NCBI GenBank assembly: GCA_016700135.1
Contig: CP065004.1
Span: 1,050,001 to 1,082,000 of the forward strand
Direction of reading: 5' to 3'
DNA: 32,000 nucleotides
DNA from: Candidatus Saccharimonadota bacterium
Lineage (GTDB): Bacteria; Patescibacteriota; Microgenomatia; UBA1406; GWC2-37-13
The position numbers were made by a program, and so were the translations under genes. The first letter of the stretch is position 1; every line of letters starts with the position of its first letter. This document shows positions 3,393 to 32,000 of this stretch, in pieces. The notes beneath the pieces were generated by a model. The model did not search any database. It was not told where the DNA came from and worked only from the letters and a program-made list of their open reading frames with translations.

Positions 3393-3399
3393 TGAAGAA

Positions 3400-7157: not shown

Positions 7158-7195
7158 ACGATTTGAAACGTTTGTAACGGATCACTTCTTGAGGA

Positions 7196-7306: not shown

Positions 7307-7315
7307 AGTGTGATT

Positions 7316-7324
7316 ATTGTAGCA
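7316..7324 (-). promoter_or_regulatory. extended -10 promoter TGCTACAAT (minus strand) for the small ORF and recG
   Basis: This exact 9-mer also occurs at 7364-7372 (+) and 25414-25422 (+). ATG 7306 lies 9 nt downstream. Confidence 0.45.
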
Positions 7325-7363
7325 CATTTTTCTCCTGTTTTTACAGTTGAAACAGGCGGAATA

Positions 7364-7372
7364 TGCTACAAT
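7364..7372 (+). promoter_or_regulatory. extended -10 promoter TGCTACAAT for the PBP1A gene
   Basis: TGCTACAAT is followed by gaaccct and then ATG at 7380. It is divergent from the identical element 39 nt away. Confidence 0.45.
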
Positions 7373-7379
7373 GAACCCT

Positions 7380-9929: not shown

Positions 9930-9950
9930 CCGGTCACTCACCCGAGTATG

Positions 9951-10856: not shown

Positions 10857-11488
10857 ATCAGATCGATAAGTTCTTTGAAATGTTTAATGGTATGGGTCGG
10901 CTTGTGACGGGAGAACATGTTATGAGGATAATAAAGTTCATGAATATCAGGATAGTACCAAATTCCCGTGACATGTGCGGCATGACCGGCCAGAATATCC
11001 ACTTCATTGTCCCCTATCATGATCGTTTCCTCAGGTTTAGAATCCAGTCGCTCCATCGCAAGCAGAAGCGGATCGGGATCAGGTTTGTTTCTCTCAGTAT
11101 CTTCCCATGAGAGAGTCGTATCAAAAAGTGTCTCACAGTTCAGAAGTGTAAGTACTCTATCGAGTGTCGGTCTCAAGGTAGATGTTACGATTGCCGTTTT
11201 TATCCCCCGGGATTTTAATATCTGCATCAGATCCAGGAATCCTTCATGAAGCTGAATTTCCTTTTGCAGCATGTCAAAATTTGCATATAGATCATACTTG
11301 AATACTTCTACGTCAGGGATTTTGAGTTCCGGTTTTGCATCCCACCTGTGGAATGCTTTATCAATGATGTCCCTATCAGACATTGGGATTCCTAGTGCGT
11401 CAAACGTTTTTCGAAAACTTTTAAGCCATACGGGAAGCGAATTTACGACACAGCCGTCGAAGTCAAAAAGTATGGTGCGGTACTTCAT
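10853..11488 (-). CDS. HAD-superfamily hydrolase (phosphatase, subfamily IA-like)
   Basis: Motif I ILFDFDGCVVNS, motif II IVTST, and a motif III/IV region with K...MIGDNEVDILAG. Confidence 0.85.
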   Translation of the reverse strand: MKYRTILFDFDGCVVNSLPVWLKSFRKTFDALGIPMSDRDIIDKAFHRWDAKPELKIPDVEVFKYDLYANFDMLQKEIQLHEGFLDLMQILKSRGIKTAIVTSTLRPTLDRVLTLLNCETLFDTTLSWEDTERNKPDPDPLLLAMERLDSKPEETIMIGDNEVDILAGHAAHVTGIWYYPDIHELYYPHNMFSRHKPTHTIKHFKELIDLI

Positions 11489-11494
11489 GAAGAC

Positions 11495-11503
11495 ATTGTA
11501 CCA
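11495..11503 (-). promoter_or_regulatory. extended -10 element TGGTACAAT, 6 nt upstream of the HAD ATG (leaderless geometry)
   Basis: The minus strand reads ccctggTACAATgtcttcATG, immediately after the pheT stop. Confidence 0.45.
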
Positions 11504-11524
11504 GGGAACATGAAGAAGTTTCCG

Positions 11525-13543
11525 TTAAATAGTCTTTTGAATTTTTTCCAGCTCTTTTTTTGCATCTTCTTCTGTGATATTTTTTGAAGAATCGGCAAAA
11601 TAAAAACGGATCGTCAGATTGTCCTTGTATCTATCAATTATTTCGATATTCTGCAGGAGGTGTGAGGTGTCATATGCCTTCTTTTCGAGTTCGCCATATA
11701 CTCTCTCTTTCATGTCGATTGTCACATCAAGCTTAATTATCGCTGTCGTGACAGGGTCTTTGTATGGCTTCGTGATCGAATAATTGTTTTGGATGAAACC
11801 GAAGTCAATCTCTGCGATGTATACGTCTTCTGAAAGTGCCATGTTATCGGCATACTCTTTCTTCAGCATACCTAGTCGGCCGACCTGTTTGTCTCCGGAC
11901 ATAAGGGTTGTTGATGTGTTTTGAGAAAATAAGTCAGTTTCTTTCGGCTCGTAGGTGTAATTGTAGATATTAAGCTCTCTCATCAATCCTTCCACAATTC
12001 CTTTCAGATCAAAAAAATCTGTCGTAACCGCGATCCCGAGAATATATTGCTCTTCCGGAAGATCATTGTCACGGGGTATATAAATTTTTGCAATTTCAAA
12101 TATCTTTAATATGTCCTTCTTACCCTGATTATCTTTAATATTTTTGACAAGTGACACGGCAAGAGACCGTCTCATATACTCAATCTCTTTTGAAATGGTG
12201 TTTGACAATTTCAGATGCTTTGAGGGATCCATACCGAGATTTTTCAGAAGCTCTTCTGATACCATTGAGTAATTGATGAACTCATGGAGTCCGATATGTT
12301 TCAGATAGTGTTTTGATTTGGAGATCGTTTTGAAAAGCATCTCCATATCATGCAGCTGCTTGATATAGATAAGCGGTGAAATGGTGTTCGGGAGATTGTA
12401 GTATCCGTATACCCGTGCGACTTCTTCAATGATATCTTCTTTGATATCGACATCGTCAGTGCGATATGTCGGAACGGTCACTTCAAAGTATACCCCGTCA
12501 GGATATGCCAGCTCTTCATTCTCATGACGTTTCACAGAAAAACCGAGATCTTCAAGAATGGCGGTGACTTTCTTTTCATCAATCGTCACGCCGATGACTC
12601 GATGGATATCCTTGAGATATACCTTTACTTTTTTCTCTTCGCGCTTGTGAGGATAAAGATCAACAAGTTCCGAAGCTGCATGTCCGCCGGTTGCTTCAAG
12701 AAGAAGATCAATACCGTATACAAAAGCCGTTTCGACCCGTTCGGGATCAAGTCCTTTTTCAAAGTATGTAGCGGCCATTGTCCGCTGTCCGGTTGTCATT
12801 GAAGTCTTTCTGATATGGCGCTTGTTATAAGTTTGCACAAAAAAGAGTACGTTTCTCGTATCTTCCGTTATGGATGAATTCTCGCCTCCCATGATCCCGC
12901 AGAGATCGATAATTCTACCTGATCCGTCTTCGATAATGATGTCATCTCCCGGAAGGGTAAATTCCTTTCCGTCCAGTGTGGTCATTTTTTCACCTTTTTT
13001 GCTGCGGCGGAGAATCATTTTCTGTCCTTTGATCTGATCAAAATCAAACATATGAGTCGGCTGCCCGAGTGAAAGCATTAGATAGTTTGAAATATCAATG
13101 ACGTTATTGAGTGATCTGATGTCGGAAAGTTCCAGTCTTTTTTTGATAATTTCCGATGACGGCTTTATTTGTACATCAGAGATGACCATCGCCGTAAACC
13201 GTGAACAAAGTTCGGCATCCTCGATTGTGACATCAAGTTTATGTGTGGGCACCGGTTCTGCATGAAGATTTTCAAACGTATATTTTTCAAGCGGGTTAAA
13301 TTTCAGTTTTGCCTTCTTTCCGAATTGAGGTAAAATCGCCTGAGCTTCCTGCGCGACTCCGAAAACACTTGCCATATCAATACGGTTTGACGTGATTTCG
13401 ATATCAAATACATAATCATCACCGACTTTTTCCACCGTTTCGATCGACGGGCCGCTGAGTGAAAGATACTTCTGCATCTCATAGGGATCGGCATCCGTTT
13501 CAAGATACTCCAAAAGCCAGTCATACGTGATTTTGATATTCAT
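11525..13543 (-). CDS. pheT: phenylalanine--tRNA ligase beta subunit (lacking the B2 OB-fold tRNA-binding domain)
   Basis: The N-terminus MNIKITYDWLLEYL (B1) runs directly into DIEITSNRIDMAS (TPNRxD-type motif). B3/4, B5 and the C-terminal domains are present. 672 aa, located immediately downstream of pheS. Confidence 0.95.
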   Translation of the reverse strand: MNIKITYDWLLEYLETDADPYEMQKYLSLSGPSIETVEKVGDDYVFDIEITSNRIDMASVFGVAQEAQAILPQFGKKAKLKFNPLEKYTFENLHAEPVPTHKLDVTIEDAELCSRFTAMVISDVQIKPSSEIIKKRLELSDIRSLNNVIDISNYLMLSLGQPTHMFDFDQIKGQKMILRRSKKGEKMTTLDGKEFTLPGDDIIIEDGSGRIIDLCGIMGGENSSITEDTRNVLFFVQTYNKRHIRKTSMTTGQRTMAATYFEKGLDPERVETAFVYGIDLLLEATGGHAASELVDLYPHKREEKKVKVYLKDIHRVIGVTIDEKKVTAILEDLGFSVKRHENEELAYPDGVYFEVTVPTYRTDDVDIKEDIIEEVARVYGYYNLPNTISPLIYIKQLHDMEMLFKTISKSKHYLKHIGLHEFINYSMVSEELLKNLGMDPSKHLKLSNTISKEIEYMRRSLAVSLVKNIKDNQGKKDILKIFEIAKIYIPRDNDLPEEQYILGIAVTTDFFDLKGIVEGLMRELNIYNYTYEPKETDLFSQNTSTTLMSGDKQVGRLGMLKKEYADNMALSEDVYIAEIDFGFIQNNYSITKPYKDPVTTAIIKLDVTIDMKERVYGELEKKAYDTSHLLQNIEIIDRYKDNLTIRFYFADSSKNITEEDAKKELEKIQKTI

Positions 13544-19861: not shown

Positions 19862-20380
19862 TTAGGAACAGCTTGGATGGTAGGTTGCAAGTTGTGTCAC
19901 GATGTCATCACCAGTGTTGAATAAACCGTCAGGACCGACGCTTCTTATAGAGTCCCGCCGGCAAGGGTTGGTGGGATATTCTCCGTCGTTTTCATCGACA
20001 ACATACGGACTTCCCCAGGGATCACGGGTATATTCGGTGATATCACCGTATCCTGCTGCGGAAACGGTATTCATGACATTTATCCAACGCTGCATACAGA
20101 TATGTGAAGTGGGGACATTGCGAAGATCGCCGGTATTGCATGCATTACAAAAACTGCAGTAATTTCCGGTGATTTGTCCGAACAACTGACCAGATTTTAC
20201 CCGCGCTGTTTCTACGCCTTTTTTAATATCTTCCAAGTCAGTCTCAGCGCTTGAAACACGGGTGTCATCTATGGTACTTCTGAATGACGCGGCACCGACT
20301 GTGGCAATTACGCCGATTATGCCCAACACAATAACAAGTTCAAGAAGTGTAAATGCTTTGTTCATGTCCGGGAATGTCAT
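19862..20380 (-). CDS. type IV pilin (candidate major pilin), Cys-rich globular domain
   Basis: MTFPDMNKA|FTLLELVIVLGIIGVIATVGAASF is a prepilin signal. The C-terminal domain has 7 Cys. The gene has its own promoter and terminator. Confidence 0.8.
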   Translation of the reverse strand: MTFPDMNKAFTLLELVIVLGIIGVIATVGAASFRSTIDDTRVSSAETDLEDIKKGVETARVKSGQLFGQITGNYCSFCNACNTGDLRNVPTSHICMQRWINVMNTVSAAGYGDITEYTRDPWGSPYVVDENDGEYPTNPCRRDSIRSVGPDGLFNTGDDIVTQLATYHPSCS

Positions 20381-20422: not shown

Positions 20423-21418
20423 TCATGCTACTCCAACTGCATCTTTTACTTCTCTGAGTGTTTGTTCGGCAATAAGGTTTGCCTTTTCTGCACCTTTTTT
20501 GCGGAGTTCCGAAATACGATCCATATCGTGCTGCAGTTCTTCCTTTCGCTTTTTCATATCGGCAAAATACTCAAGGAAATAATTAAGAAGAATTTTTTTG
20601 ATTTCGACATCACCGATTGTACCATTCTTATACCGCTCTTTCATATCTTCGAGTTTATTCCTCTCATACTCCATAAGCCCGAGATATGTAAATGCAACGT
20701 TTTTGTCCGGATCACCGGGATCAGTGGGATGAATACGGGCAGGATCGGTCGTGACTGACATAATTTGCTTTTTCACAATATCTTCAGAAGCAAAAATCGG
20801 AATATCATTTCCGAGTGATTTACTCATTTTGCGTTGGCCGTCAATACCGGGAACACGGGCAACATCCTTTTTGACAAATAGCTCAGGAACTTTCAGCACG
20901 TCTCCGTATCTGTTGTTGAATGTCCGCGCAATATCCCGGCAGATCTCAACATGCTGTGTCTGATCTTCACCCACAGGGATAACATCGGGATTAAATGCGA
21001 GAATATCAGCAGCCATAAGCACCGGATATGAAAACAGCCCGAAATTTATGGCATCCTGAGACACATCATTCTGCAGCTTATCTTTGTAGGCGTGCATCCT
21101 TTTGAGCTCCGCAACCGTCACTGCGTTATTCAGTATCGTCTGCAAATACGGAATGCTGTGAATATCGCTTTGGATATAAAATGTCGTCTTCTCAGGATCA
21201 AGACCGAAAGCCAGATATTCGATGAAAATATTCATCGTATTTTTATGTACTTCCTCAGGGTCAAAAACATTATTCAGTGCATGAAGATTCGCTATAAAGT
21301 AAAAACAATCACCTTTCTCCTGAAATTCAATGTGAGGTTTGACTGCTCCAAGATAATTTCCGAGATGAAGTCCTTTGGCTGAACTCGGCGTTATTCCAGA
21401 TAGTATTCGTTTTTGCAT
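20423..21418 (-). CDS. trpS: tryptophan--tRNA ligase
   Basis: Class I motifs GLHLGNYLGA (HIGH region) and KMSKS are present. Start at MQKRILSGITPS (21418). The ORF-track extension was rejected. Confidence 0.95.
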   Translation of the reverse strand: MQKRILSGITPSSAKGLHLGNYLGAVKPHIEFQEKGDCFYFIANLHALNNVFDPEEVHKNTMNIFIEYLAFGLDPEKTTFYIQSDIHSIPYLQTILNNAVTVAELKRMHAYKDKLQNDVSQDAINFGLFSYPVLMAADILAFNPDVIPVGEDQTQHVEICRDIARTFNNRYGDVLKVPELFVKKDVARVPGIDGQRKMSKSLGNDIPIFASEDIVKKQIMSVTTDPARIHPTDPGDPDKNVAFTYLGLMEYERNKLEDMKERYKNGTIGDVEIKKILLNYFLEYFADMKKRKEELQHDMDRISELRKKGAEKANLIAEQTLREVKDAVGVA

Positions 21419-21430
21419 ATTACTCTCACC

Positions 21431-21439
21431 ATTATAGCA
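21431..21439 (-). promoter_or_regulatory. extended -10 promoter TGCTATAAT for trpS
   Basis: The minus strand reads cgaTGCTATAATggtgagagtaatATG. Confidence 0.45.
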
Positions 21440-21478
21440 TCGTTTTTCCGTATAATGAAAACATACGAGGTCATTTTT

Positions 21479-23476
21479 ATGGCGAAGAAACCAATTAATT
21501 TTCATTCTTTACTACTGCCGGGAATACTGCTTCTTCTTACTCTTGCGGCCGGCGGAGTGATTTTCTTTGCGCTGAAACAAAGTGATACGTCAGAGAAGCA
21601 CGAAACAATCCAGGATATCCCCACAGAGGCTTCTCAATCGACAAATATTTTGGTTTATGATGTGACAGCCCCTGATACGGCTTTTACGGGAACGGCAAAG
21701 GAAAAAAATACTGAAGCGAGCGTACCTCTTAAGTTCAGAACAATTCGGTCTACTGATTATGACTATGACGACGAACGGGAACAGTACAAGACAACCGTTG
21801 TGCGACTGGCCACACGGACTGATATGACATTAGCGGTAACTATTCCGGGCAACCCGACCAGTGCCGTGCTGAGAAGTCCGACAGCTGATCTCCCGGTGAC
21901 TGTCTCAGGCGGGGTGGTGACGTTTGACTTACCGGCGATACCCGGAAATTATTACTTAAAAACGAATCTGCCGGATGAAGGCGAGTACATCCAAACAATG
22001 GTATTCTGGGTAGATAAACTTGATGACATCACCGTTACCAAGCCGACACAGGCAACTGAAGTATTGCCGGGGCAACCTCTTCAGGCCGTGATCGACGGTG
22101 CTCAACCGGGAACGATGATTTATCTTGCGCCTGGTATCCACTCGGCATCAGGAATTCGAATCGATTCAAAGAATGATATCTCACTTATTTTTCATCCGAA
22201 TGCCGTTTTAAATCAGACTTCAACCGACGAGAAATTTATCGATATAAACAGGTCCTCAAACGTGACAATAAAGGGGCCGGGAGAAATCCGGGCAGCCAAA
22301 GGTAACGGTCAAACAGTCTTATATGCACATGACTCCAACAACCTGATTCTTAACGACTTTTTCATCTATAAAATCCATCATCGTGACGGCTGGACTCTTC
22401 ATGTGTACCGTGATGACACCGTGCAGGTCAACCAGGTGAGAATTATTTCCGGAAATGACGGAACAGATCCTGACAGCTCGAAGAACGTGACTTACAACAA
22501 TATTTACATCGAAGCTCAGGATGATGCTGTAGCGATTAAGACACGGGGAGGAGAAGCAAATACCATTACGCTTAACAACGTTTTAGCAAAATCCGCCGCA
22601 TCGTCTTTGAAAATCGGAGAGGCAACGGTTGATTCTTTGACGACCAATATTACTTTCAAAAACAGTACGGTATTTGACAGTGATCGCGCTCTGGTGGTGA
22701 TGCCACGCGGCAACGGACGGATCGGGAATGTGCTCTATCAAAATATCCGGGTACTTTCGATGAGATCAAATAAGGAAGGGAGAACGATTCGTGTACTGAA
22801 ATCCGCAACGGATACAAGCGGCAGTATATTTGACGGGTCCTCCATTGTGTTTGATAATGTGTATGCAGAGTTTATCAAACCTGCTGAAATCAGACAGGCT
22901 GTGACGATCAAACATTCCAGGTTTGTTTCAAATGGTGGGATGAATATGTTTCCGGATACCTGTCCAACATTGATCAACCTGACTCTCGAAGGAGGGGCGA
23001 CGACAACCTGTACTATCCAAACGGAACCGACGTATACTCCTACTCCGACTGTGGGAGGTACCACACCTACTCCTACTTCTCCTGCTGCTACGGCAACAGT
23101 CCCACCGGGGACAACACCGACTCCTACTGCCGCAGCATCAACTCCGACACCGACAACGACAGCCCCGACCCCTACTCATACGGCTACGCCCACCTTGACT
23201 CCTACTCCTACATTGACGCCGACTCCCACCGCTACCCCGACTCCTACATCCACACCAACTCCGACCAGTACGCCGACTCCAACATCTACTCCGACGCCTA
23301 CATTTACCCCGACTCCCACGTTTACTCTTACTCCTACTCCGACTCAAACACCGGTGCCGACTGCAACATTTACACCTGTACCTGAGCTGAAAGTAAACGG
23401 TCAGCCGCCGGGATTCAATCCTCTCTACTTTGTAGGTATTCCTCTCATGATAATTATTGCGGCGCTGCTAATGTAG
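21479..23476 (+). CDS. secreted right-handed beta-helix protein, GH28 (polygalacturonase)-like, with Pro/Thr linker and C-terminal TM anchor
   Basis: N-terminal signal/TM MAKKPINFHSLLLPGILLLLTLAAGGVIFFAL. SGNDGTDPDSS and QDDAVAIKT resemble the GH28 NTDG and GDDC(I/V)AIK motifs. A ~120-aa (T/P)-rich linker follows, and the protein ends in the hydrophobic YFVGIPLMIIIAALLM. GAGG lies 8 nt upstream of ATG 21479. Confidence 0.7.
   Translation: MAKKPINFHSLLLPGILLLLTLAAGGVIFFALKQSDTSEKHETIQDIPTEASQSTNILVYDVTAPDTAFTGTAKEKNTEASVPLKFRTIRSTDYDYDDEREQYKTTVVRLATRTDMTLAVTIPGNPTSAVLRSPTADLPVTVSGGVVTFDLPAIPGNYYLKTNLPDEGEYIQTMVFWVDKLDDITVTKPTQATEVLPGQPLQAVIDGAQPGTMIYLAPGIHSASGIRIDSKNDISLIFHPNAVLNQTSTDEKFIDINRSSNVTIKGPGEIRAAKGNGQTVLYAHDSNNLILNDFFIYKIHHRDGWTLHVYRDDTVQVNQVRIISGNDGTDPDSSKNVTYNNIYIEAQDDAVAIKTRGGEANTITLNNVLAKSAASSLKIGEATVDSLTTNITFKNSTVFDSDRALVVMPRGNGRIGNVLYQNIRVLSMRSNKEGRTIRVLKSATDTSGSIFDGSSIVFDNVYAEFIKPAEIRQAVTIKHSRFVSNGGMNMFPDTCPTLINLTLEGGATTTCTIQTEPTYTPTPTVGGTTPTPTSPAATATVPPGTTPTPTAAASTPTPTTTAPTPTHTATPTLTPTPTLTPTPTATPTPTSTPTPTSTPTPTSTPTPTFTPTPTFTLTPTPTQTPVPTATFTPVPELKVNGQPPGFNPLYFVGIPLMIIIAALLM
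23021..23383 (+). repeat. low-complexity Pro/Thr-coding repeat (ACNCCN-type periodicity) inside the GH28-like gene
   Basis: The translation is TPTPTxTPTPT repeated. The antisense frames give an artefactual Arg/Ser/Cys ORF. Confidence 0.85.
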
Positions 23477-23700: not shown

Positions 23701-23711
23701 ACGGGAAAGTG

Positions 23712-23785
23712 TGGGCGTATCAGGACTTGAACCTGAGACCTTTACAATGTCAATGTAACGCTCTAGCCAACTGAGCTATACGCCC
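23712..23785 (-). tRNA. tRNA-Val (anticodon GAC)
   Basis: Hand-folded cloverleaf: acceptor GGGCGTA/TACGCCC, D-arm GCTC-AGTTGGCTA-GAGC, anticodon arm TTACA-TTGACAT-TGTAA, variable AGGTC, T-arm TCAGG-TTCAAGT-CCTGA, discriminator A. CCA is not encoded. Confidence 0.9.
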
Positions 23786-24784
23786 TGTGAACGCTCTAGC
23801 CTCCGCCGGCTGGCGCCTCCGCCGGTTGGCGGATGAGCTATACGCCCTGTGAACGCTTCTGGCCTATGAGCCTCCGCCGGTTGGCGGATGAGCTATACGC
23901 CCTACGCCCTGGCGGATGAACGCCCTGTCTAGCCTCCGCCGGTTGGCGGATGAGCTATACGCCCTGTGAACGTTTCTAGCCTCCGCCGGTTGGCGGATGA
24001 GCTATACGCCCTGGCGGATGAACGCTGTGAACGTTTCCAGCCTCCGCCGGTTGGCGGATGAGCTATACGCCCTGTGAACGCTCTAGCCTCCGCCGGTTGG
24101 CGGATGAGCTATACGCCCTGTGAACGCTTCAGCCTCCGCCGGTTGGCGGATGAGCTATACGCCCTGTGAACGCTTGGCGGATGAGCTATACGCCCTGTGA
24201 ACGTTTCCAGCCGGTTGGCGGATGAGCTATACGCCCTGTGAACGCTCTGGCCTCCGCCGGTTGGCGGATGAGCTATACGCCCTGTGAACGCTTCCTCCGG
24301 TTGGCGGATGAGCTATACGCCGGTTGGCCGGATGAGCTATACGCCCTGTGAACGCTCTAGCCTCCGCCGGTTGGCGGATGAGCTATACGCCCTGTGAACG
24401 CTCTAGCCTCCGCCGGTTGGCGGATGAGCTATACGCCCTGTGAACGCTCTGGCCTCCGCCGGTTGGCGGATGAGCTATACGCCCTGTGAACGTTTCTGGC
24501 CTCCGCCGGAACGCTCTAGCCTCCGCCGGTTGGCGGATGAGCTATACGCCCTGTGAACGCTCTCCAGCCTCCGCCGGTTGGCGGATGAGCTATACGCCCT
24601 GTGAACGCTCTAGCCTCCGCCGGTTGGCGGATGAGCTATACGCCCTGTGAACGTTTCTCTAGCCTCCGCCGGTTGGCGGATGAGCTATACGCCCTAACGC
24701 TTCTAGCCTCCGCCGGTTGGCGGATGAGCTATACGCCCTGTGAACGTTTCAGCCTCCGCCGGTTGGCGGATGAGCTATACGCCC
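23786..24784 (-). repeat. tandem array (~21 units, 46-nt consensus) of a tRNA-Val 5'-fragment with a 16-nt GC hairpin insert
   Basis: Consensus on the tRNA strand is GGGCGTATAGCTCA TCCGCCAACCGGCGGA GGCTAGAGCGTT CACA. Twelve units are 44-49 nt and near-perfect. Nine are truncated, partially duplicated or scrambled. There are no spacers. Confidence 0.95.
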
Positions 24785-24804
24785 TTTCAAAATCAATACG
24801 TTAT

Positions 24805-24838: not shown

Positions 24839-25348
24839 TTATTCGGAAGAAGATTCCTGCTGAGGCTGCGAGTACAATGCCACTGCTTTATCAATGACTT
24901 CGCGTGTCGAATATCGCGGATCATATTTTACGGTTTGTATCGTTCCTTCAATCTGCTTTATCACTGCTTCCTCGGGCAGCTGTCCTTTTTTATAATCTCC
25001 GGCGAGGACATATATGGTCGGCTTAATTTCCCCGATAAGATTTGATGCATTTTTTTCTGCATACGATACGACATAATCAACTAATGATACTGATGCCAGA
25101 ACCTTCATGCGATGTTCGAGTGAATTGACAGGCCCTTTAGGATTGGCAAATTGCTTTATCGCGTCATCTGACTGCACACCTGCGAAAACTACATCACCGT
25201 GTGACCTTGCCTGCTCAAGAAAATAAATGTGTCCCGGATGTAGGATATCAAAAACTCCATTTACGAGCACAACTACTTTACTGATTGATTTAAAGTTGTA
25301 CGATAGGTTTGCGGCAAAATCAAGTTCGGCAACTACTTTATTTTCCAT
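24839..25348 (-). CDS. cytidylyltransferase-fold protein resembling HldE/RfaE domain II (D-beta-D-heptose 1-phosphate adenylyltransferase)
   Basis: NGVFDILHPGH (HxGH), PVNSLEHRMKVLASVSLVDYVV and LAGDYK match the layout of the RfaE domain II family. 169 aa, stand-alone. Confidence 0.75.
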   Translation of the reverse strand: MENKVVAELDFAANLSYNFKSISKVVVLVNGVFDILHPGHIYFLEQARSHGDVVFAGVQSDDAIKQFANPKGPVNSLEHRMKVLASVSLVDYVVSYAEKNASNLIGEIKPTIYVLAGDYKKGQLPEEAVIKQIEGTIQTVKYDPRYSTREVIDKAVALYSQPQQESSSE

Positions 25349-25428: not shown

Positions 25429-25848
25429 ATGAACATCATCAAACAACAAAGTAACTCATACATTCTGAGATTTGACCGCGGTGAAGAGTTTATTTCAGCA
25501 ATACAGGACTTCTGCACGAAAAACAATATTAAGTCCGGATATTTTCACGGTATCGGGGCCTGTCATAAACTGGAGCTGTCTTGGTACAACCTTCAGACAA
25601 AAAAGTATGAAACAAAGGTTATTGAGGAAAATCTTGAAATTACATCTTTGACCGGGAATATTGCATTGATTGACGGCTCGGTTTTTGCACATACTCACGG
25701 TGTTTTCGGGGGCAGGCAACTTCAGGCAATAGCGGGGCATGTCAAAAGTATGGAAATATCTGCAACCTGTGAGATCAAACTTGATATTTTTGAAGGGACA
25801 ATCGAACGCATATTTGATGAAGCGACAGGTCTCAAGCTGATGAAGTGA
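25429..25848 (+). CDS. PPC (DUF296) domain protein
   Basis: 139 aa. FISAIQDFCTKNNIKSGYFHGIGA...LTGNIAL.DG....H.H is typical of the PPC/DUF296 fold. Confidence 0.75.
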   Translation: MNIIKQQSNSYILRFDRGEEFISAIQDFCTKNNIKSGYFHGIGACHKLELSWYNLQTKKYETKVIEENLEITSLTGNIALIDGSVFAHTHGVFGGRQLQAIAGHVKSMEISATCEIKLDIFEGTIERIFDEATGLKLMK

Positions 25849-25913: not shown

Positions 25914-26543
25914 ATGCTACGGAAAAATTTCATTGAATTTCTCGGTACATTTTTTCTGGTTTTGACTGTCGGTATTTCCCAGAATCCTTTTGCCATCGGA
26001 GGAGTCCTAGCAGCACTTGTCTATATGGGCGGATATATTTCCGGAGCACATTACAATCCGGCCGTTACATTGGCGGCGCTTCTTAACGGCAAGATCAATT
26101 TGAAAGCTGCGCTGCAGTATATGGTCGTACAGCTTTTGGCAGGTGTAGTTGCTGCCGCCGCTGTCGAGACGATCAATGATACCGCTTTTATTCCCACTGT
26201 CGCAGAAGGTGCCAAAATGAGTTCTGCGCTTCTTGTCGAAGTTCTTTTTACATTTTTATTAGCGTTTGTAGTATTACATGTAGCCTATTCAGATAAGGTT
26301 AAAAATAATCATTATTACGGCGCTGCTATCGGCCTGACGCTAATGACTGCGGCTTTTATCGGCGGGCCAACATCAGGCGGTGCTTTCAATCCGGCAGTCG
26401 GCCTGAGTCCGTATCTGTATAAATTTGCCGATCTCAGCAAGAATATTGATGCGGCAGGTTTTTATCTGATCGGTCCGATGATCGGGGGGATTTTGGCCGG
26501 TATGGCGTACAAAATGACGCAGTCTATAAAGACAACAAAGTAA
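25914..26543 (+). CDS. MIP-family channel (aquaporin/glycerol facilitator)
   Basis: Two NPA boxes (GAHYNPAVT and GGAFNPAVG) and six hydrophobic segments. 209 aa. Confidence 0.9.
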   Translation: MLRKNFIEFLGTFFLVLTVGISQNPFAIGGVLAALVYMGGYISGAHYNPAVTLAALLNGKINLKAALQYMVVQLLAGVVAAAAVETINDTAFIPTVAEGAKMSSALLVEVLFTFLLAFVVLHVAYSDKVKNNHYYGAAIGLTLMTAAFIGGPTSGGAFNPAVGLSPYLYKFADLSKNIDAAGFYLIGPMIGGILAGMAYKMTQSIKTTK

Positions 26544-26550: not shown

Positions 26551-27265
26551 GGCTCTAGACTAGCAGAGTAGTGCTAAACTAGAGGTATGGTTTGTAACAA
26601 TAGGCCGATATCAAAATACAAGAGAAAAAAGATACTATGGTGTTTTGCACACGATCTGAGTGCTACACAGACCTCTGGTATTTTGGGTCTCAACCGCAAT
26701 ACAGTCAACAAATATTACAATAATATTCGTCAACTCATATATCATCACCAAGTGCACCAGATGCAACGATATGTTGGTGGTGAGATAGAAATTGATGAAT
26801 CATACTTTGGACCTCGAAGGATGAGAGGCAAGTCAAGTAAAAGAGGTCGTGGGACGTCATTTAAGCAGGTAGTATTTGGGATATATGAGCGTCAAGGACG
26901 TGTATTTACTCGTATCATTCCAAACTGTAAAAGAAGAACGCTACATGCTGTTATGAAGGGAAAGATTGACTTGAACAGTACTGTATATTCAGATTCGTGG
27001 AGCGGATACAACGGACTTGTTGATGTCGGGTATGACAAACATTTGAGAATCAATCACAAGAAAAATGAGTTCTCAAATACAAAAGGGGTCCATATCAATG
27101 GCATAGAGTCATTCTGGTCCTTTTGTAAAAGACGTCTCGTTAAGTTCAATGGTGTAAAGAAAAACTTTCCATTACACTTGAAAGAGTGTGAATGGAGATG
27201 GAGCAAATCCCCATCGATCCTTTACAATGAACTATTACAAATTGTTAATGTGCTAGTATAGAGCC
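26551..27265 (+). mobile_element. IS1595-family insertion sequence (IS1016-like subgroup), 715 bp
   Basis: Terminal inverted repeats GGCTCTAGACTAGCAGAGTA (26551-26570) and GGCTCTATACTAGCACATTA (complement of 27246-27265) match at 17/20. A single transposase ORF fills the element. No flanking direct repeat was found. Confidence 0.8.
26587..27261 (+). CDS. IS1595-family (IS1016-like) DDE transposase
   Basis: An N-terminal HTH-like segment (KKILWCFAHDLSATQTSGILGLNRNTVNKYYNNIRQ) is followed by IEIDESYFG, GRG..KQVVFGIYERQGRVF, YSDSW.GY and INGIESFWSF, as in IS1016-group transposases. Confidence 0.9.
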   Translation: MVCNNRPISKYKRKKILWCFAHDLSATQTSGILGLNRNTVNKYYNNIRQLIYHHQVHQMQRYVGGEIEIDESYFGPRRMRGKSSKRGRGTSFKQVVFGIYERQGRVFTRIIPNCKRRTLHAVMKGKIDLNSTVYSDSWSGYNGLVDVGYDKHLRINHKKNEFSNTKGVHINGIESFWSFCKRRLVKFNGVKKNFPLHLKECEWRWSKSPSILYNELLQIVNVLV

Positions 27266-27972
27266 AAAGTATTTGACCCGGTAATATTGGTATTAATCAG
27301 GTTGAACAAATCGACCTGTACTCTGCTGTCTCCCGTCATAATAATTCCGTCAGGTATAAGCAACACGTTTTTACCGGTGTCAGCAATTGCCTGAATCGTC
27401 GTCTCCACTTCTGCATCATTTTCGTTGATGGTTTCACTCTGGATTGCAGATTCAGTACTGACCAGTATGTTTTGACAGCTATCGGTTAAATTCAAGATGT
27501 CCTGAGTGTCGAAGTTATGAGATAAGATAAGCATGCAATTACCTGCACCTGTAATATTGGTATTTATAACATTGTCCACAGTGACTACGTTTTCAGCATT
27601 TCCCGTTCGGATAACCGGTGCTGTCAGTGTTACGGTAGGTACCGGTGTTACTTCTTGAACAATCACACTGCTCGGGCTGGCTTCTTCTGTAGATTGTTCC
27701 GATTTGATTAAGTCATCCGTAGTCATATCGATAGTGGGAATCACCGTGGGAGTAATTTCAGTAACCGGGATCGGTGGGGTAGTAATCAATTCTTCAGGTG
27801 TCGGTGAGATTTCTGTCTCAGGTGTGAGACTCGGTTCAGGCACGGGTGTTTCTGTAACTGCTTCTTCGACTGACGGTGTGGGAGAAATATCCGGAGTTTC
27901 CGTGACTGCAAAAACGGCAAGAGGCTGTGCTATCGTCAACGTGAAAATGAGAAGGAATGTTAGGTATTTCAT
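27253..27972 (-). CDS. secreted Pro/Thr/Glu-rich protein with NTNITG/TGDS repeat core; 3' end apparently replaced by the IS
   Basis: Signal peptide MKYLTFLLIFTLTIAQPLAVFA. The last codons and the TAG stop (27253-27265) lie inside the IS right inverted repeat. The second repeat (VDLFNLINTNITGSNT) breaks off where the first continues for ~90 aa. Confidence 0.6.
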   Translation of the reverse strand: MKYLTFLLIFTLTIAQPLAVFAVTETPDISPTPSVEEAVTETPVPEPSLTPETEISPTPEELITTPPIPVTEITPTVIPTIDMTTDDLIKSEQSTEEASPSSVIVQEVTPVPTVTLTAPVIRTGNAENVVTVDNVINTNITGAGNCMLILSHNFDTQDILNLTDSCQNILVSTESAIQSETINENDAEVETTIQAIADTGKNVLLIPDGIIMTGDSRVQVDLFNLINTNITGSNTLALY

Positions 27973-28078
27973 AGTCAATTCCGTAATTTATTTCAGGTCT
28001 TTTTAGTAAAAAATCTGAAATAAACAACGTTTCTTACAGACTGGCTTGTCCGAACAAGGTACAATATCTTATCTTTCC

Positions 28079-28105
28079 GTGCCCCGGGGATTTTCCCCGG
28101 GGCAC
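28079..28105 (-). terminator. perfect GC-rich palindromic hairpin GTGCCCCGGGGA-ttt-TCCCCGGGGCAC downstream of the 314-aa gene (no U-tract)
   Basis: A 12-bp perfect inverted repeat 17 nt after the stop at 28122. It is not followed by a T-run on either strand, so terminator function is uncertain. Confidence 0.4.
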
Positions 28106-28121
28106 TGGAAACCCTACAAGA

Positions 28122-29054
28122 TTAACTCAACCAAAAGAAAAGCATATCCATAATATTTCCGATAAAGGAACTATTTGAATTGCCTTCCGCAGCAGAGCCA
28201 ACTTGTACACCTGCTCCACCAGTCATCATTCCGGTTCCGCCGATGTTGTCATCAGCGTCATTGTGACCTGAATTGGTATGTGTCATGATACTTTGCAATA
28301 CAGTCATCAAATTTGAACTCGATGAGCTCATAGATGTACTTGTATGTACATTTGTGTCTGTATCAAGATCATCTCCCGTGTTAACGATACTGGTCATATT
28401 CCCTCCTTCGTGAGAAGAAAGTGAACTCATTCCCCCACCAAGTCCGATTGCTGTTGTGTTGTCATTGACATCAACGTCAAAACCAACGGCAGCAGCAGCG
28501 TTACCTGTGGTAAGAGTCGGTCCAGAACCAATATTGTCATCAGCATCATTATGTCCGGTGTTAGCATGAATGTTTGCAGCTTGTTGGACGAATGCAGAAT
28601 TCATACTGTTTACTGAAACATTCGTGGTAGAATTTGCAGAAGTATCAATATCTGCATCATCTCCCGTGTTGACGATATCCGTCAAATTGGAATCACCGTC
28701 TCCGCTACTCACTGCAATAGCTGTCTGATTCTCATTTGCATCGACATCTAGACCGATTTGTGAAAGTGCGCTACCTGTCATAATTGACGTTCCGGCACCA
28801 TTCAAACTGATATTTCCGTCAGCAGAATTGTGACCAGTGTTAACATGTGCCTGTACTTGTTGAGTAATGGCAGCTACGTTGGTATTTGACACATTCACAT
28901 TTGTTGATGTTGATGAGGAAGTTGTCACCTGTGCATCATCACCGCTGTTGACGATATTTGTGGTATCGGAAGCGGCAAAAGCTGCCGGTGTTGCAACCAG
29001 CCCCATTATTGCGAGCATTGAGATTCCAGTTAGTAACATTTTCTTATTTAGCAT
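28122..29054 (-). CDS. secreted repeat protein, three ~95-aa NTGDD...NTGHN.AD.NI...TG.A modules
   Basis: Signal peptide ...LVATPAAFA|AS. ATG 29054 is preceded by GGGGGTGA at 9-nt spacing. It is a paralogue of the upstream 682-aa protein. Confidence 0.8.
   Translation of the reverse strand: MLNKKMLLTGISMLAIMGLVATPAAFAASDTTNIVNSGDDAQVTTSSSTSTNVNVSNTNVAAITQQVQAHVNTGHNSADGNISLNGAGTSIMTGSALSQIGLDVDANENQTAIAVSSGDGDSNLTDIVNTGDDADIDTSANSTTNVSVNSMNSAFVQQAANIHANTGHNDADDNIGSGPTLTTGNAAAAVGFDVDVNDNTTAIGLGGGMSSLSSHEGGNMTSIVNTGDDLDTDTNVHTSTSMSSSSSNLMTVLQSIMTHTNSGHNDADDNIGGTGMMTGGAGVQVGSAAEGNSNSSFIGNIMDMLFFWLS
28167..28961 (-). repeat. three tandem ~93-96-codon protein repeat modules (approximate bounds)
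   Basis: N(S/T)GDD occurs at aa 40, 133 and 229, and N(T/S)GHN(S/D)AD(G/D)NI at aa 76, 169 and 265 (ORF-track numbering). Confidence 0.6.
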
Positions 29055-29062
29055 ATTTCTAT

Positions 29063-31111
29063 TCACCCCCTTTCATCAATTTTGAACGTATAACTTCTGG
29101 AAGCGTATGTAGTTTTCCTTAATACTCCGCCGGAAAGCAAGACTGCGAGCGATGCAAGCAAAAAGGAAATCATATCTTCAGGACCCGTGGTAGGAAGTCT
29201 GCTTACGGATGCTCCAAGCACATCTCCCGTGGTGAAGGGAACGCCGCCTTTATATCCTGTTGTAGATGTCGAAGCCAGTGTTGTTCCTCCACCGCCGGTT
29301 TTGGTTCCTCCGTTATTTCCCCCGTTGCCTGTCGGTGTTGTGGTCGGTGTTGCGGTAGGATTCGGTCCGGATGTCGGTGTAGGTGTGACTGTAGGGTCCT
29401 GAGTCGGTGTGGGTGTGGGTGACGGATCGGCTTTTGCTATAACCTGACAGCCAACTTCAGTTTTGTTTGTATTTGCATTGGCCTCAGTTTGCACGGCCAG
29501 AACAGCGTCGCCTGTCCCGATAATACCTGTCTGACTGCCGATATTTCTGCTTGAGGTATTGGATCCAGTGTCTACCTGTCCTGTGATTTTTTGGACAAGG
29601 AATGCTTTATTGGTATTTGTCACGGAAATATCTGTTGTACTTGTTGTTGAAGTATCAGTCTGGAGATTGTCTCCGGTGTTTATGATTTCCGTATTTTGTC
29701 CTGAAGTTCCGCATGCTGTATATAGCGGATCACTACTGCTGCTGTCAGCGACCGGGTCGTTTGTTTCTTCCTTTAGGGTTGCGGAATTTTCATTCGCTTT
29801 TGCGTCCATTTTCACAATGACGGCAGCGTCTCCAGTAAATATGACCCCTGCGTCGCCGCCGAAGCTAATATTTCTGTTGGCCGTATTATATCCGGTATTG
29901 GCTACGGCATTGACCTGTTGATTGATTGCAGCCTTGTTTGTGTTTGTGACATCAGTATTAGTTGTGTCAGATGAAGATGTATCTGAAGTTGTATTGTCTC
30001 CGGTGTTGAGTATATCGGTACTGTTTTGGCTACTGTTTCCGTTGTTTGCAATCGTTGTGCTGTTGTCGTTTGCATCTGCTTTCATGTCTACATATACCAG
30101 TGCATCTCCGGTTTGAATTATTCCCGCACTTCCCGCAAGTCCGATATTGCGGTCAGCATGATTGTGCCCTGTATTTGCCATGCAGAGTGCTTGACCTGCT
30201 CCGCAGCTTTGTGAGATGAGTGCAGAGTTACTGTTCCTTATCGTGGTCGAGCGTTGCTTCATCAATCTGGAAGCAAAGTCATTATTGTCTCCGGTGTTTA
30301 CGAGGATGATAGATGCTCCGCTGCCCGGTCCGTTGCCATTACTGTCTCCCCCGATAAGGATGACACTTCCGTTTGCAGTCGCGAGAAAGTTGGTAGAGGT
30401 ATATGCCGAACCTGTCAGTATAACTCCGGCACTCCCGCCGATACTGATGTTTCCGTCTGCGGTATTGTGTCCGGTATTAGCCTCAGTCTGAGCCTGCTGA
30501 TTTATTACCGTTTCATTGTTATTGTTTACCATTGTTAACGTTGTATTTTGCGATGATGATGTCTTAGTCATACCGTTACCGGTATTAGTTGTATCGGAAG
30601 AAGTATTTGAAGTAGCCCCTGAGTATCCAATGGATGTTGTATTTTTATTCGTATCTGCTTTTGCGGTTGTCTGAACTCCGGCATTCCCTGTCACAATAAT
30701 TCCTGCATTACCGCCGAAACTGATATTTTTACCCGCTTCATTGTGTCCGGTATTGGCCGTTGCCGTCACCTGTTGATTGACGGCAGCTGTATTGTTGTTA
30801 TCTACTGCAGTTTCGGATGTACTCTCTGATTGATTTGTTTCCGAAACGTTATCTCCTGTATTAACCGTCGTATTTGACTGCTCTTGAGTAGGTTGTGTGG
30901 TTTCCTGTGTATTATTTTGTTCCTGATTTGAGGTTTGAAGTTCCTGTTGGGCCTGTGTTTGTATCTGTTCGGTCAGCGTATTCTTATCAGGAGGAGGGGT
31001 TTCTTCGGCCCAGGCGATGGGTAAAGGAAACAGAATCAAACTCAATGTAAGGTAACTAAATAAAGAGAATGAAACTGCTGTTCTGATAAATTTTGCTATA
31101 TGTATTTTCAT
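29063..31111 (-). CDS. LPXTG-anchored cell-surface protein with five ~91-109-aa NTGDN...NTGHN...TGDA modules
   Basis: Signal peptide ...LFPLPIAWA|EE, a Q/T/N/E-rich spacer, five modules, a P/T linker and then a C-terminal sorting signal: LPTTG (29186-29200), hydrophobic ISFLLASLAVLLSGGVL and basic RK. ATG 31111 is preferred over the TTG at 31123. Confidence 0.85.
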   Translation of the reverse strand: MKIHIAKFIRTAVSFSLFSYLTLSLILFPLPIAWAEETPPPDKNTLTEQIQTQAQQELQTSNQEQNNTQETTQPTQEQSNTTVNTGDNVSETNQSESTSETAVDNNNTAAVNQQVTATANTGHNEAGKNISFGGNAGIIVTGNAGVQTTAKADTNKNTTSIGYSGATSNTSSDTTNTGNGMTKTSSSQNTTLTMVNNNNETVINQQAQTEANTGHNTADGNISIGGSAGVILTGSAYTSTNFLATANGSVILIGGDSNGNGPGSGASIILVNTGDNNDFASRLMKQRSTTIRNSNSALISQSCGAGQALCMANTGHNHADRNIGLAGSAGIIQTGDALVYVDMKADANDNSTTIANNGNSSQNSTDILNTGDNTTSDTSSSDTTNTDVTNTNKAAINQQVNAVANTGYNTANRNISFGGDAGVIFTGDAAVIVKMDAKANENSATLKEETNDPVADSSSSDPLYTACGTSGQNTEIINTGDNLQTDTSTTSTTDISVTNTNKAFLVQKITGQVDTGSNTSSRNIGSQTGIIGTGDAVLAVQTEANANTNKTEVGCQVIAKADPSPTPTPTQDPTVTPTPTSGPNPTATPTTTPTGNGGNNGGTKTGGGGTTLASTSTTGYKGGVPFTTGDVLGASVSRLPTTGPEDMISFLLASLAVLLSGGVLRKTTYASRSYTFKIDERG
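29456..30865 (-). repeat. five tandem protein repeat modules (approximate bounds)
   Basis: NTG(D/N)(N/G) occurs at aa 88, 179, 276, 373 and 482. (N/D)TG(H/Y/S)N occurs at aa 124, 216, 317, 409 and 519 (ORF-track numbering). Confidence 0.6.
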
Positions 31112-31230
31112 AATAAATAACAAAGCTATTTACAAATTTTGTTATGGGGTAATCATAAGGTTGCTTCATAAAGATAGTGAAAGACTCTTATAAAAAAACA
31201 GTAAGGAAGTGAATGATAACTGATCCAAGG

Positions 31231-32000
31231 CTATGAAATGAGTTCAATAGTCTTACGAAAGACTTCATCAACAGTTACGGAACTGACATATGATTTCATA
31301 TGACCGCACGATTCAATTTCATTCAGCGGAATTTGAGAATCACGATCAAAAAGCGGTTGCCGACATACTTCACATTCCTGAATCCATGAGATAGCAGTGC
31401 GGTTTGTTGACCTTGTGACCGGAGACCAGTGGATCATGTTCGGGAACCAATAGATTCCGATCGTCGGTATCCCGATCGCACGGGCGAGATGCATTGGTCC
31501 GGTGTCGTTGGATATTACTGCTCGGGTTTGCTTGAGAACTCCGATAAGGGCTCTCAATGATAGTTTTCCGCACAGATTGACGGCCTGATGTTTCATCGCT
31601 TTTTGCACTTCAGTTATGATGTTTTCCTCAGATATAGTACCTGTAAGAACGATTTCATATCCTTCTTCATATAACCGATCTCCTAATTGAGCGTAGGAAT
31701 CAGCCGGCCAGATTCTTCGACTGTCACTTGCTCCGGTGTGAAGTACCACATATGGAGAGTTTATTCCTCTGATAAACTCCGTTGCTTCACGGTAATCTTC
31801 TTCAATTGTCGGAATCTTCGGGTCTATCGCTACAGGAGATGCTCCGGCCAGTGACACTACTTCAAGATATCGGTGAACTTCATGCTGATACAGCCGATAC
31901 GGAATTGTTTTATCAAGATCGGGGGCATCATCGGTTTTCATTCCGATTGTATAGTTCGCGCCCAGCCTCTTTACAAAAGGGTTAGAGTTTCTACCGCCGC
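31231..32000 (-). CDS. glycosyltransferase family 9 (ADP-heptose-dependent heptosyltransferase-like), 5'-partial at window edge
   Basis: The C-terminal GT-B domain has VVLHTGASDSRRIWP, NLCGKLSLRALIGVL and VISNDTGPMHLARAIGIPTIGIY. The frame stays open from 31941 to the window end (…GGRNSNPFVKRLGANYTIG), so the real start lies beyond 32000. Confidence 0.85.
   Translation of the reverse strand, partial: GGRNSNPFVKRLGANYTIGMKTDDAPDLDKTIPYRLYQHEVHRYLEVVSLAGASPVAIDPKIPTIEEDYREATEFIRGINSPYVVLHTGASDSRRIWPADSYAQLGDRLYEEGYEIVLTGTISEENIITEVQKAMKHQAVNLCGKLSLRALIGVLKQTRAVISNDTGPMHLARAIGIPTIGIYWFPNMIHWSPVTRSTNRTAISWIQECEVCRQPLFDRDSQIPLNEIESCGHMKSYVSSVTVDEVFRKTIELIS

Follow-up and report, generated by a model that had tools for sequence, protein, structure and literature searches.

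Heptose-containing glycans are textbook components of Gram-negative lipopolysaccharide (LPS), and in the LPS heptosyltransferase WaaC the key residues comprise the catalytic Asp D13, the phosphate-binding basic residue K192, E222, and the heptose motif D261-T262-G263 involved in ADP-heptose binding. Among monoderm bacteria, examples of glycosylation at the cell surface are the S-layer glycan of Aneurinibacillus thermoaerophilus, which involves GDP-heptose, and GtfA/GtfB with GspB/Fap1. In the Aah/TibC systems, a heptosyltransferase gene lies directly upstream of the gene for the surface protein, AIDA-I or TibA. TibC carries an N-terminal beta-barrel of about 97 residues ahead of its catalytic domain, a thumb in the form of a beta-hairpin, and in its C-lobe a four-Cys iron finger (C339, C342, C358 and C370) that contacts the protein substrate, and assembles into a ring-shaped dodecamer (PMC4358343). 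Herein we analyzed a window, meaning the whole stretch of 32,000 nucleotides at positions 1,050,001 to 1,082,000 of contig CP065004.1 (assembly GCA_016700135.1, Candidatus Saccharimonadota bacterium), which ends within the gene of a glycosyltransferase family 9 (GT9) enzyme, designated GT9a, located upstream of three repeat-protein genes, rep1, rep2 and rep3. While an earlier reading of the letters alone (the sequence-only reading) had likened this arrangement to aah-aidA and tibC-tibA and suggested that the repeat proteins, or another wall polymer, may be heptosylated, our comparison with related genomes led us to consider, at about even confidence, that GT9a is an envelope-glycan heptosyltransferase adjacent to rep1 by descent.

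GT9a is encoded on the minus strand, and the window holds the 3' 72% of its gene (31231-32000), corresponding to residues 100-354 of 354, with the N-terminal 99 codons lying beyond the window end. The frame with its stop at 31231 stays open up to the window edge, and the 236-aa open reading frame (ORF) listed at 31231-31941 was accordingly discarded as an artefact of that end. The full gene product was recovered as P0001, a 354-aa 'glycosyltransferase family 9 protein [Candidatus Roizmanbacteria bacterium]' from a 1,448,136-bp contig, residues 100-354 of which were 100% identical to the part encoded in the window. The 255 window residues matched Pfam PF01075 (Glyco_transf_9) with E=2.9e-34 and 118.9 bits, against a cut-off of 22. 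Both the family assignment and the location of the gene, on the strand of the 682-aa repeat gene and 119 nt upstream of it, had been proposed from the sequence alone and were borne out, the start codon of rep1 lying at 31111. The earlier observation was accurate in all its facts, and the matches on which it rests, those of the repeat proteins and the adenylyltransferase included, reflect clear homology and not chance.

A structural model of GT9a built with AlphaFold2 (AF2) on an alignment of 49 orthologues (pLDDT 94.8, pTM 0.92) showed a GT-B fold with two Rossmann-like lobes. Foldseek comparison of the model with solved structures gave TM scores of 0.80 to 3tov (a GT9 enzyme of Veillonella parvula), 0.75 to E. 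coli WaaF and 0.67-0.69 to E. coli WaaC, as against 0.50-0.56 to TibC, and the probability was 1.00 for 3tov, 1psw and 2h1h. A chloroplast NDH-PSI supercomplex subunit of plants (9grx, 7wff, 7f9o) was also retrieved with a TM score of about 0.7, ranking above TibC. At the residue level, D13, K192, E222 and D261-T262-G263 of WaaC aligned with D15, R194, E223 and D264-T265-G266 of GT9a; D15 was invariant among the 49 orthologues, and R194, D264 and G266 were at least 90% conserved. The catalytic and donor-binding residues of WaaC are thus kept, in agreement with the enzyme identity assigned earlier.

All NCBIfam LPS heptosyltransferase models matched GT9a, each under its cut-off (full-length P0001: TIGR02193, 93.8 vs 185.3; TIGR02195, 82.8 vs 134.6; TIGR02201, 79.4 vs 170.2). 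Within the sequence set used for a neighbour-joining tree, GT9a was 20-25% identical to WaaC, WaaF, WaaQ and WaaU and 19% identical to TibC, and it fell into a clade of its own with 94% bootstrap support. A second GT9 enzyme encoded by relatives, designated GT9b, formed another clade with 100% support, and since each of the two clades spans three phyla, the GT9a/GT9b pair must be old. The GT9a clade comprises at least 150 representatives of 50%-identity clusters scoring better than 1e-77. Neither a signal peptide nor a transmembrane segment was predicted in GT9a. GT9a is a cytoplasmic WaaC/WaaF-type GT-B enzyme in a distinct and widespread GT9 clade, in other words, a member of a known family and of an uncharacterised clade that is found here in an unusual genomic state.

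As to its relationship to TibC, GT9a scored 20.3 bits against TIGR04414 (cut-off 200), the model of the bacterial autotransporter heptosyltransferases (BAHT) Aah and TibC, to which the full-length protein gave no match at 1e-5, and hhalign aligned only 104 C-lobe residues with TibC of enterotoxigenic E. coli (ETEC) H10407 at a probability of 58%. The N-lobe of GT9a (354 aa, vs 406 aa in TibC) begins at residue 3-4, and because the protein starts straight with the first N-lobe strand, it has no N-terminal beta-barrel. With regard to its placement among WaaC, WaaF, WaaQ and TibC, which the sequence-only reading had singled out for a phylogenetic check, GT9a is therefore WaaC/WaaF-like by fold, yet forms its own clade and stands outside the Aah/TibC family. 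Its orthologues share a nearly invariant CxxC-x18-CxH finger, namely C308, C311, C330 and H332, which the paralogue GT9b does not have. This Cys3His finger lies 26 residues past a strand that in TibC is followed 21 residues later by the iron finger. The profile alignment ends before the finger, so that homology of the two fingers was undetectable and the equivalence concerns their position. In the wider GT9a clade, the strict pattern CxxC-x(10-30)-CxH was found in 47 of 109 full-length representatives, and thus the finger marks a subclade only.

The genomic context of GT9a in relatives provided the link to heptose. In UBA1450 (Roizmanbacteria), the GT9a orthologue of which is 59% identical, the gene order is PCC(-), GT9a, rep1, rep2, rep3, a 161-aa protein(-), MIP(-), MsbA-like ATP-binding cassette (ABC) protein(-), GT4, a GT4::GmhA fusion, short-chain dehydrogenase/reductase (SDR), GmhB, HldE, HldC-like, GT9b, tryptophanyl-tRNA synthetase (TrpRS), pilin and threonyl-tRNA synthetase (ThrRS). 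GCA_964582715.1 and L013/L014 (two Roizmanbacteria-like genomes) showed the order PCC(-), GT9a, ABC(-), GT4, GT4::GmhA, SDR, GmhB, HldE, HldC-like and GT9b, with no repeat genes in between. Furthermore, a metagenome-assembled genome of Anaerolineae and Pontibacter ummariensis share the order GT4, GT4(::GmhA), SDR, GmhB, HldE, GT9b, (GT2), GT9a and GT2, the GT4::GmhA fusion being absent from the Pontibacter cassette; their GT9a orthologues are 42-47% identical and share the Cys3His finger. Cassette synteny with GT9a was also seen at locus L008, and three more pairs of GT9a and HldE matches (P0007/P0124, P0016/P0155 and P0024/P0133) are apparently co-located on one contig each, as judged from equal contig sizes. 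The cassette occupies positions 5806-13128 at L012, 9038-16540 at L005, 1388-9936 at L010 and 1-12152 at L009.

The assignments of the cassette proteins were supported by NCBIfam models: GmhA for the SIS domain (196-212 bits), GmhB for the HAD protein (150 bits), HldE for the PfkB plus nucleotidyltransferase protein (333 bits), MshA for the GT4 part of the fusion (286 bits), and MsbA for the ABC protein (267 bits), and the SDR is a classical one. The 600-aa ABC protein was also considered as an ABC-F translation factor, which was ruled out by its single nucleotide-binding domain behind a hydrophobic N-terminal half; being MsbA-like, it is rather an exporter, and it adjoins the cassette in Roizmanbacteria. 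Judging from these gene contents, we propose that the cassette makes ADP-heptose and then uses it, with GT9a, GT9b, two GT4 enzymes and GT2 building a heptose-containing glycan. The co-location with GmhA, GmhB and HldE in relatives points to ADP-heptose as the probable donor of GT9a, and its status as a fixed cassette member gives good support for heptose as the donor. The connection to heptose drawn in the sequence-only reading was in this respect well founded. In the literature on heptosyltransferases in Candidate Phyla Radiation (CPR) bacteria and Chloroflexi and on monoderm heptose pathways, we found no description of this cassette or of the GT9 function there.

These observations can be accommodated by the following scenario. 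In the ancestor, the cassette would have supplied ADP-heptose, and GT9a, GT9b, the GT4 enzymes and GT2 would have built a heptose glycan on an acceptor that was most likely common to Anaerolineae, Pontibacter and Roizmanbacteria, since all of them carry the same cassette. To our knowledge, CPR bacteria and Anaerolineae are devoid of LPS, and the acceptor of GT9a therefore cannot be Kdo2-lipid A; no lipid A or Kdo genes were found in the window. The acceptor would be a membrane- or lipid-linked envelope molecule at the inner membrane face, as for WaaC. The repeat-protein trio, with a promoter-like spacer of its own, would have come to lie beside the cassette within a single subclade of Roizmanbacteria, which would make the GT9a-then-rep1 synteny a matter of descent. 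In the present genome, the exporter, both GT4 genes, GmhA, SDR, GmhB, HldE and GT9b would then have been lost from the locus, leaving GT9a and the HldC-like gene to persist under purifying selection, probably with GT9a transferring heptose onto an acceptor not made by the lost transferases. In this scenario, heptose as the donor, the non-protein nature of the acceptor and the route of donor supply are what we infer.

The block loss is evident from the arrangement of the window, which on the minus strand is collinear with UBA1450. The HldC-like gene (24839-25348, minus strand) encodes a stand-alone nucleotidyltransferase of 169 aa, orthologous to the gene between HldE and GT9b in relatives. Its best NCBIfam model was rfaE_dom_II (TIGR02199) with 137.9 bits, under the cut-off of 181.5 that the UBA1450 orthologue passes with 185.3 bits, its best solved structure was Burkholderia HldC (5x9q, E=2.6e-22), and its HxGH motif reads HPGH at residues 37-40, so that the earlier description as an RfaE/HldE-domain-II-like adenylyltransferase proved sound. 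Relatives carry this protein besides a complete HldE, and it may therefore differ in its specificity for nucleotide or sugar. The stretch from the ABC exporter through HldE is gone entirely from between MIP and the HldC-like gene, with PCC in its place, and at the place of GT9b there are instead tRNA-Val, a repeat array of about 1 kb and a GH28-like surface protein gene. A tblastn search of the window detected no remnants of the missing cassette genes, and no GmhA, heptose kinase or GmhB. The sister genome L038 (GCA_964504235.1), whose rep1 is 91% identical, showed the identical reduced layout, and hence the cassette loss is real and older than the split of the two.

As for the remainder of the genome, an HldE search with a Roizmanbacteria query recovered the orthologues of UBA1450 and others at 49-56% identity, with a range of 52-100% for three other Roizmanbacteria; the best 120 matches, all of which had at least 43% identity, included no protein of the 1,448,136-bp contig; other proteins of that contig are present in the database used. 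This indirect evidence suggests that the genome has no orthologous HldE, as far as the best 120 matches go, and a divergent pathway elsewhere would be compatible with it. The other heptose-pathway genes that the sequence-only reading had pointed to as a check were thus found as a full cassette in relatives, and neither by tblastn in the window nor, for HldE, among those matches. The HldC-like gene, which the sequence-only reading had pointed to as a nearby adenylyltransferase, is a leftover, the last piece of the cassette, and the syntenic position contains no genes for the kinase, isomerase or phosphatase.

Both remaining genes appeared to be constrained. Between the window and L038, dN/dS was 0.077 (dS 0.41) for the HldC-like gene, compared with 0.049 (dS 0.40) for TrpRS and 0.12 (dS 0.38) for rep1. 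Of the 56 alignment columns with a conservation of at least 90% among its orthologues, GT9a deviates at 2 (54/56 kept), and orthologues from genomes with the full cassette deviate at 5/57 and 3/58 such columns; a neutral gene would be expected to have shed many conserved positions over comparable divergence. Considering the 54 retained columns and the dN/dS value of 0.077, GT9a and the HldC-like gene are most likely in use. A GT9a acting late, on the glycan made by the lost GT4, GT9b and GT2 enzymes, would be left without a substrate and should have decayed; its retention suggests an acceptor independent of the cassette.

The trio on the same strand was next to be compared with its homologues. 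The rep1 gene (29063-31111, minus strand) encodes a secreted protein of 682 aa, in which a signal peptide is followed by six modules (about 95 aa each, NTGD...NTGHN), a Pro/Thr linker, LPTTG, a membrane segment and RK. In its sorting signal, LPTTGPEDMISFLLASLAVLLSGGVLRK, LPTTG is followed by a hydrophobic stretch and the basic RK tail; the match to Pfam PF00746 reached 18.9 bits, slightly under the cut-off of 20, and L-P-x-x-G was nearly invariant in 33 rep1 homologues, L, P and G each being at least 90% conserved. The organism is an uncultivated CPR bacterium with sortase-type surface proteins. The rep2 gene (28122-29066, minus strand) encodes a secreted protein of 305-314 aa with three modules like those of rep1, and rep3 (27253-27978, minus strand) is cut to 241 aa, its intact form having 569-678 aa with a C-terminal CLIPPER/DUF11 domain. 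The modules of the trio follow the Asn/Gly/Ser/Thr-rich consensus NTGD...ANTGHNxAxxNI...TGxA; Ser plus Thr account for 26.5% of rep1 and 24.5% of rep2 (314 aa), and Asn for 11% of rep1 and 11-12% across both. The AF2 model of rep1 showed confident beta-hairpins in the module cores (pLDDT about 90) and values below 50 in the Ser/Thr-rich segments. Foldseek gave no significant structural relative of rep1, the top rows being the amyloids FapC and CsgA at E>=0.1. The trio possibly constitutes a fibre-forming system.

The 96 rep1 homologues found came, wherever the source was named, from Roizmanbacteria, Microgenomates or Parcubacteria, and among these no trio homologue outside CPR was encountered. 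Compared with UBA1450, rep2 was 66% and rep1 53-57% identical. Besides the window (27253-31111), trio loci were noted at L015, L016, L020, L028 and L030-L032. In two other Roizmanbacteria (L015 and L016) the trio is intact and both GT9 and heptose genes are lacking up to 10 kb away, and tblastn with all cassette proteins detected no cassette gene in any of 19 further trio loci from JGI metagenomes. This makes 21 trio loci without a GT9 or heptose gene, about nine of which (seven metagenome loci plus L015 and L016) have several kb of flank. A recurrent feature is a gene for an S26 signal peptidase, located 2-6 kb downstream of the trio in seven loci, some of which are possibly copies of the same contigs. 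The Ser/Thr-rich stretches are kept in homologues without a GT9 neighbour and are thus a family trait.

The spacer between GT9a and rep1 (119 nt, 31112-31230, minus strand) holds a promoter-like site, TTCACT-18-TATGAT, at 31181-31152, a consensus match that is not significant by itself. At locus L019, where rep1 is 69% identical to that of the window and hence closer than the UBA1450 orthologue, PCC and GT9a are both missing from the position upstream of rep1, and rep1 is directly preceded by a radical-SAM gene, the UBA1450 counterpart of which is located 2 kb upstream of GT9a. The proximal 75 nt or so of the spacer are nevertheless conserved between the window and L019 despite the different upstream gene, and rep1 therefore probably has its own promoter. 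In addition, L038 and the Logan contig L001, which are independent short-read assemblies, both start 51-65 nt upstream of rep1 (window about 31162-31176), inside this spacer, and GT9a is accordingly covered by neither; the shared break may reflect strain-level structural variation at the GT9a-rep1 junction.

GT9a followed by rep1, on one strand and 119-126 nt apart, was found in two genomes, this one and UBA1450, and the pairing was absent at five other GT9a orthologue loci as well as at the 21 trio loci. Synteny by descent likewise extends over the entire region as far as TrpRS, pilin and ThrRS. The trio is an autonomous Microgenomates surface-fibre module that adjoins the cassette within a single subclade of Roizmanbacteria, and in the best explanation, in our estimation as likely to hold as to fail, GT9a is an envelope-glycan heptosyltransferase that lies beside it by descent. 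The parallel with aah-aidA and tibC-tibA drawn previously was not supported, considering the BAHT score of 20 bits vs 200, the lack of the beta-barrel and the absence of the pairing at 21 trio loci, and the Aah/TibC analogy for GT9a-rep1 is weakly supported.

Several points weigh against the explanation by descent with an acceptor other than the trio. A 586-aa rep1 homologue is encoded 141 nt downstream of GT9b in GCA_964582715.1, and the rep1 homologue P0243 and the HldE P0142 apparently share one 19,026-bp contig, which suggests further proximity of the two systems; trio and cassette remained neighbours through rearrangements in this subclade, UBA1450 and this genome included. The Cys3His finger of GT9a is located, in terms of position only, at the place equivalent to the substrate-binding iron finger of TibC. 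GT9a is undecayed although the lost transferases are gone, which fits a cassette-independent acceptor, and this acceptor could be a protein. On the donor side, the absence of HldE was deduced from the best 120 matches and not from the whole genome, and the precursor block could now lie past the window end at 32000, upstream of GT9a.

These points bear first on the possibility that the Ser/Thr-rich segments of rep1, rep2 and rep3 receive O-linked heptose from GT9a in the cytoplasm, prior to their export by Sec, with the HldC-like enzyme finishing ADP-heptose, a reading by analogy that we regard as improbable but worth keeping in mind. It would agree with the close one-strand spacing of GT9a and rep1 here and in UBA1450, the rep1 homologue past GT9b in a third genome, the lack of a signal peptide or transmembrane segment in GT9a, the Ser/Thr-rich low-confidence stretch of each module, which may be flexible, the retention and constraint of GT9a and HldC beside the trio after all other cassette transferases went, and a clade-specific finger placed like that with which TibC contacts its substrate (PMC4358343). 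By sequence, domain make-up and fold ranking, however, GT9a is no BAHT; orthologues 42-47% identical and equipped with the finger reside in Anaerolineae and Pontibacter cassettes, outside the CPR lineages to which the trio homologues found belong; the trio and its Ser/Thr-rich segments are conserved without a GT9 gene within up to 10 kb, L019 having no GT9a upstream; rep1 has its own conserved promoter-like spacer; and the locus has no heptose isomerase, kinase or phosphatase, with no HldE from this genome among the best 120 matches. As for the proposal of repeat-protein heptosylation itself, the intact GT9a and HldC-like genes beside the trio and the finger position speak for it, and its basis in a BAHT-like enzyme paired with the trio was not supported, the trio occurring mostly without GT9.

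Of comparable, that is low, probability is the relocation of the cassette to elsewhere in the 1.45-Mb genome, possibly upstream of GT9a, in which case GT9a and HldC would work in a complete pathway. PCC stands on the other side relative to GT9a, indicating that the locus was rearranged and not just deleted; the strong constraint on HldC and GT9a would be most easily explained by an intact pathway, with no new biology, and the sequence past 32000 lies outside the data read. Against this, the best 120 matches of the HldE search included three other Roizmanbacteria and no entry of the 1,448,136-bp contig, and two genomes have the same reduced layout. Somewhat less probable still, we consider, is a minimal two-gene system, in which HldC would activate scavenged or otherwise-made heptose phosphate and GT9a would O-heptosylate the adjacent sortase-anchored repeat proteins, with the finger recognising the substrate; if true, it would constitute the first case of protein heptosylation beyond the proteobacterial Aah/TibC family, independently evolved from a WaaC-like enzyme in a host without LPS. 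That GT9a is a decaying remnant without present function, or uses a non-heptose donor, as might be supposed from the missing cassette core, the absence of GT9a at this position of L019, its scores under every NCBIfam heptosyltransferase cut-off and the 137.9 bits of HldC vs 185.3 in UBA1450, is quite unlikely in view of the intact 354-codon frame, the 54/56 conserved columns (better than orthologues of cassette-bearing genomes), the retained D-T-G heptose motif and catalytic Asp, the HldC dN/dS of 0.077, and the orthologues in relatives, which are always found with heptose-pathway genes.

The neighbouring parts of the window also differ from those of the relatives. An IS1595-family element (26551-27265, plus strand; transposase 26587-27261, PF12762 E=1.7e-27) stands in for 1.74 kb kept by close relatives, in which a 145-aa membrane protein and the distal two-thirds of rep3, the CLIPPER/DUF11 isopeptide-type domain included, are encoded, according to blastn breakpoints against L001 and L038. 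L001, which is 99.4% identical over the rep genes, has no insertion sequence and an intact 569-aa rep3, and the insertion is therefore polymorphic. The syntenic MIP-family channel gene (25914-26543, plus strand) is 99% identical in L038; in L001 (5193-5816), a contig otherwise 98-99% identical, the protein shares only 67% identity with the window MIP, and this segment is a small mosaic or recombined stretch. The PCC-domain protein gene (25429-25848, plus strand) is divergent from HldC here and from GT9a in relatives.

At the place of GT9b in relatives, tRNA-Val(GAC) (23711-23785) and an array of tRNA-derived units of about 1 kb occupy 23711-24785 on the minus strand. The array precedes the tRNA and consists of about 22 tandem 46-bp copies, each made of the first 14 nt of the tRNA, an 18-nt GC-rich palindromic insert and D-arm sequence. 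In L038, the tRNA-Val and its flanks are kept and the array is absent; the array could represent a genuine expansion or an artefact of long-read assembly. Adjacent to it, a 687-aa protein encoded at 21413-23476 combines a GH28/pectate-lyase-like beta-helix (PF00295 E=1.1e-5) with a long linker rich in Pro and Thr and a hydrophobic anchor at the C-terminus, and is probably a surface protein rich in potential O-glycosylation sites. Pilin-like genes were also found: the protein encoded at 19862-20380 has the PF07963 N-methylation motif, two ORFs at 66-1153 resemble it in their N-terminal segment, and three ORFs at 1200-3392 may, from their translations, encode pilus-assembly proteins.

The occurrence of a complete ADP-heptose cassette with two GT9 clades in Roizmanbacteria, Anaerolineae and one Bacteroidota genome would place heptose outside LPS, and identification of the cassette product and its acceptor would define a new class of envelope glycoconjugate. 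The present genome offers a natural experiment, in that only GT9a and a monodomain nucleotidyltransferase are kept, under selection and beside surface-fibre genes, which narrows down the step of GT9a in the pathway and prompts one to ask by what means activated heptose reaches a symbiont of reduced metabolism. For genome scans, it also cautions that finding a glycosyltransferase gene upstream of that of a repeat adhesin is insufficient for an Aah/TibC-like call, the first impression having been reversed here by comparative synteny.

Compared with the known systems, the locus resembles Aah/TibC with AIDA-I/TibA in having the gene of a GT9-related cytoplasmic enzyme directly upstream of that of a repeat-rich surface protein, and in the equivalent C-lobe place of the metal-finger insertion of TibC and the Cys3His finger. 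It differs in that the GT9a finger is CxxC-x18-CxH with three Cys and one His, whereas TibC has four Cys with other spacing, in that GT9a (TM score about 0.54 to TibC) has a normal Rossmann N-lobe and no beta-barrel, and in that repeat proteins of the sortase type, not autotransporter beta-helices, are the candidate substrates, with a pairing that is not conserved. With the monoderm S-layer and serine-rich-repeat systems it shares the location of glycan genes beside the gene of a Ser/Thr-rich surface protein, and cytoplasmic glycosylation before export has precedent there; those systems, in contrast, draw on GDP-heptose or hexoses and proceed through GT4/GT2 enzymes or by lipid-linked en-bloc transfer. 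At this locus, no oligosaccharyltransferase, accessory Sec system or initiating phosphoglycosyl transferase was seen in the ORF list, the family scans or the synteny.

As for the nucleotidyltransferase, HldC (5x9q) and HldE domain II are similar to the window protein in the HxGH motif and in size, and the former is its best structural-sequence match. A promiscuity motif, (F/L)xxGRSTT, has been described (PMC11573728). In the window protein this motif reads YDPRYSTR, according to our own placement on the translation. The closest likeness of GT9a itself is to WaaC/WaaF and 3tov, with which it has in common the Pfam family, the two-lobe GT-B fold, and the catalytic Asp, the basic residue, the Glu and the D-T-G, and in relatives its gene is kept together with GmhA, GmhB and HldE and next to an MsbA-like exporter. 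It is set apart from WaaC/WaaF by an identity of only 20-25%, a separate clade, the additional Cys3His finger, and, in this genome, its separation from its pathway.

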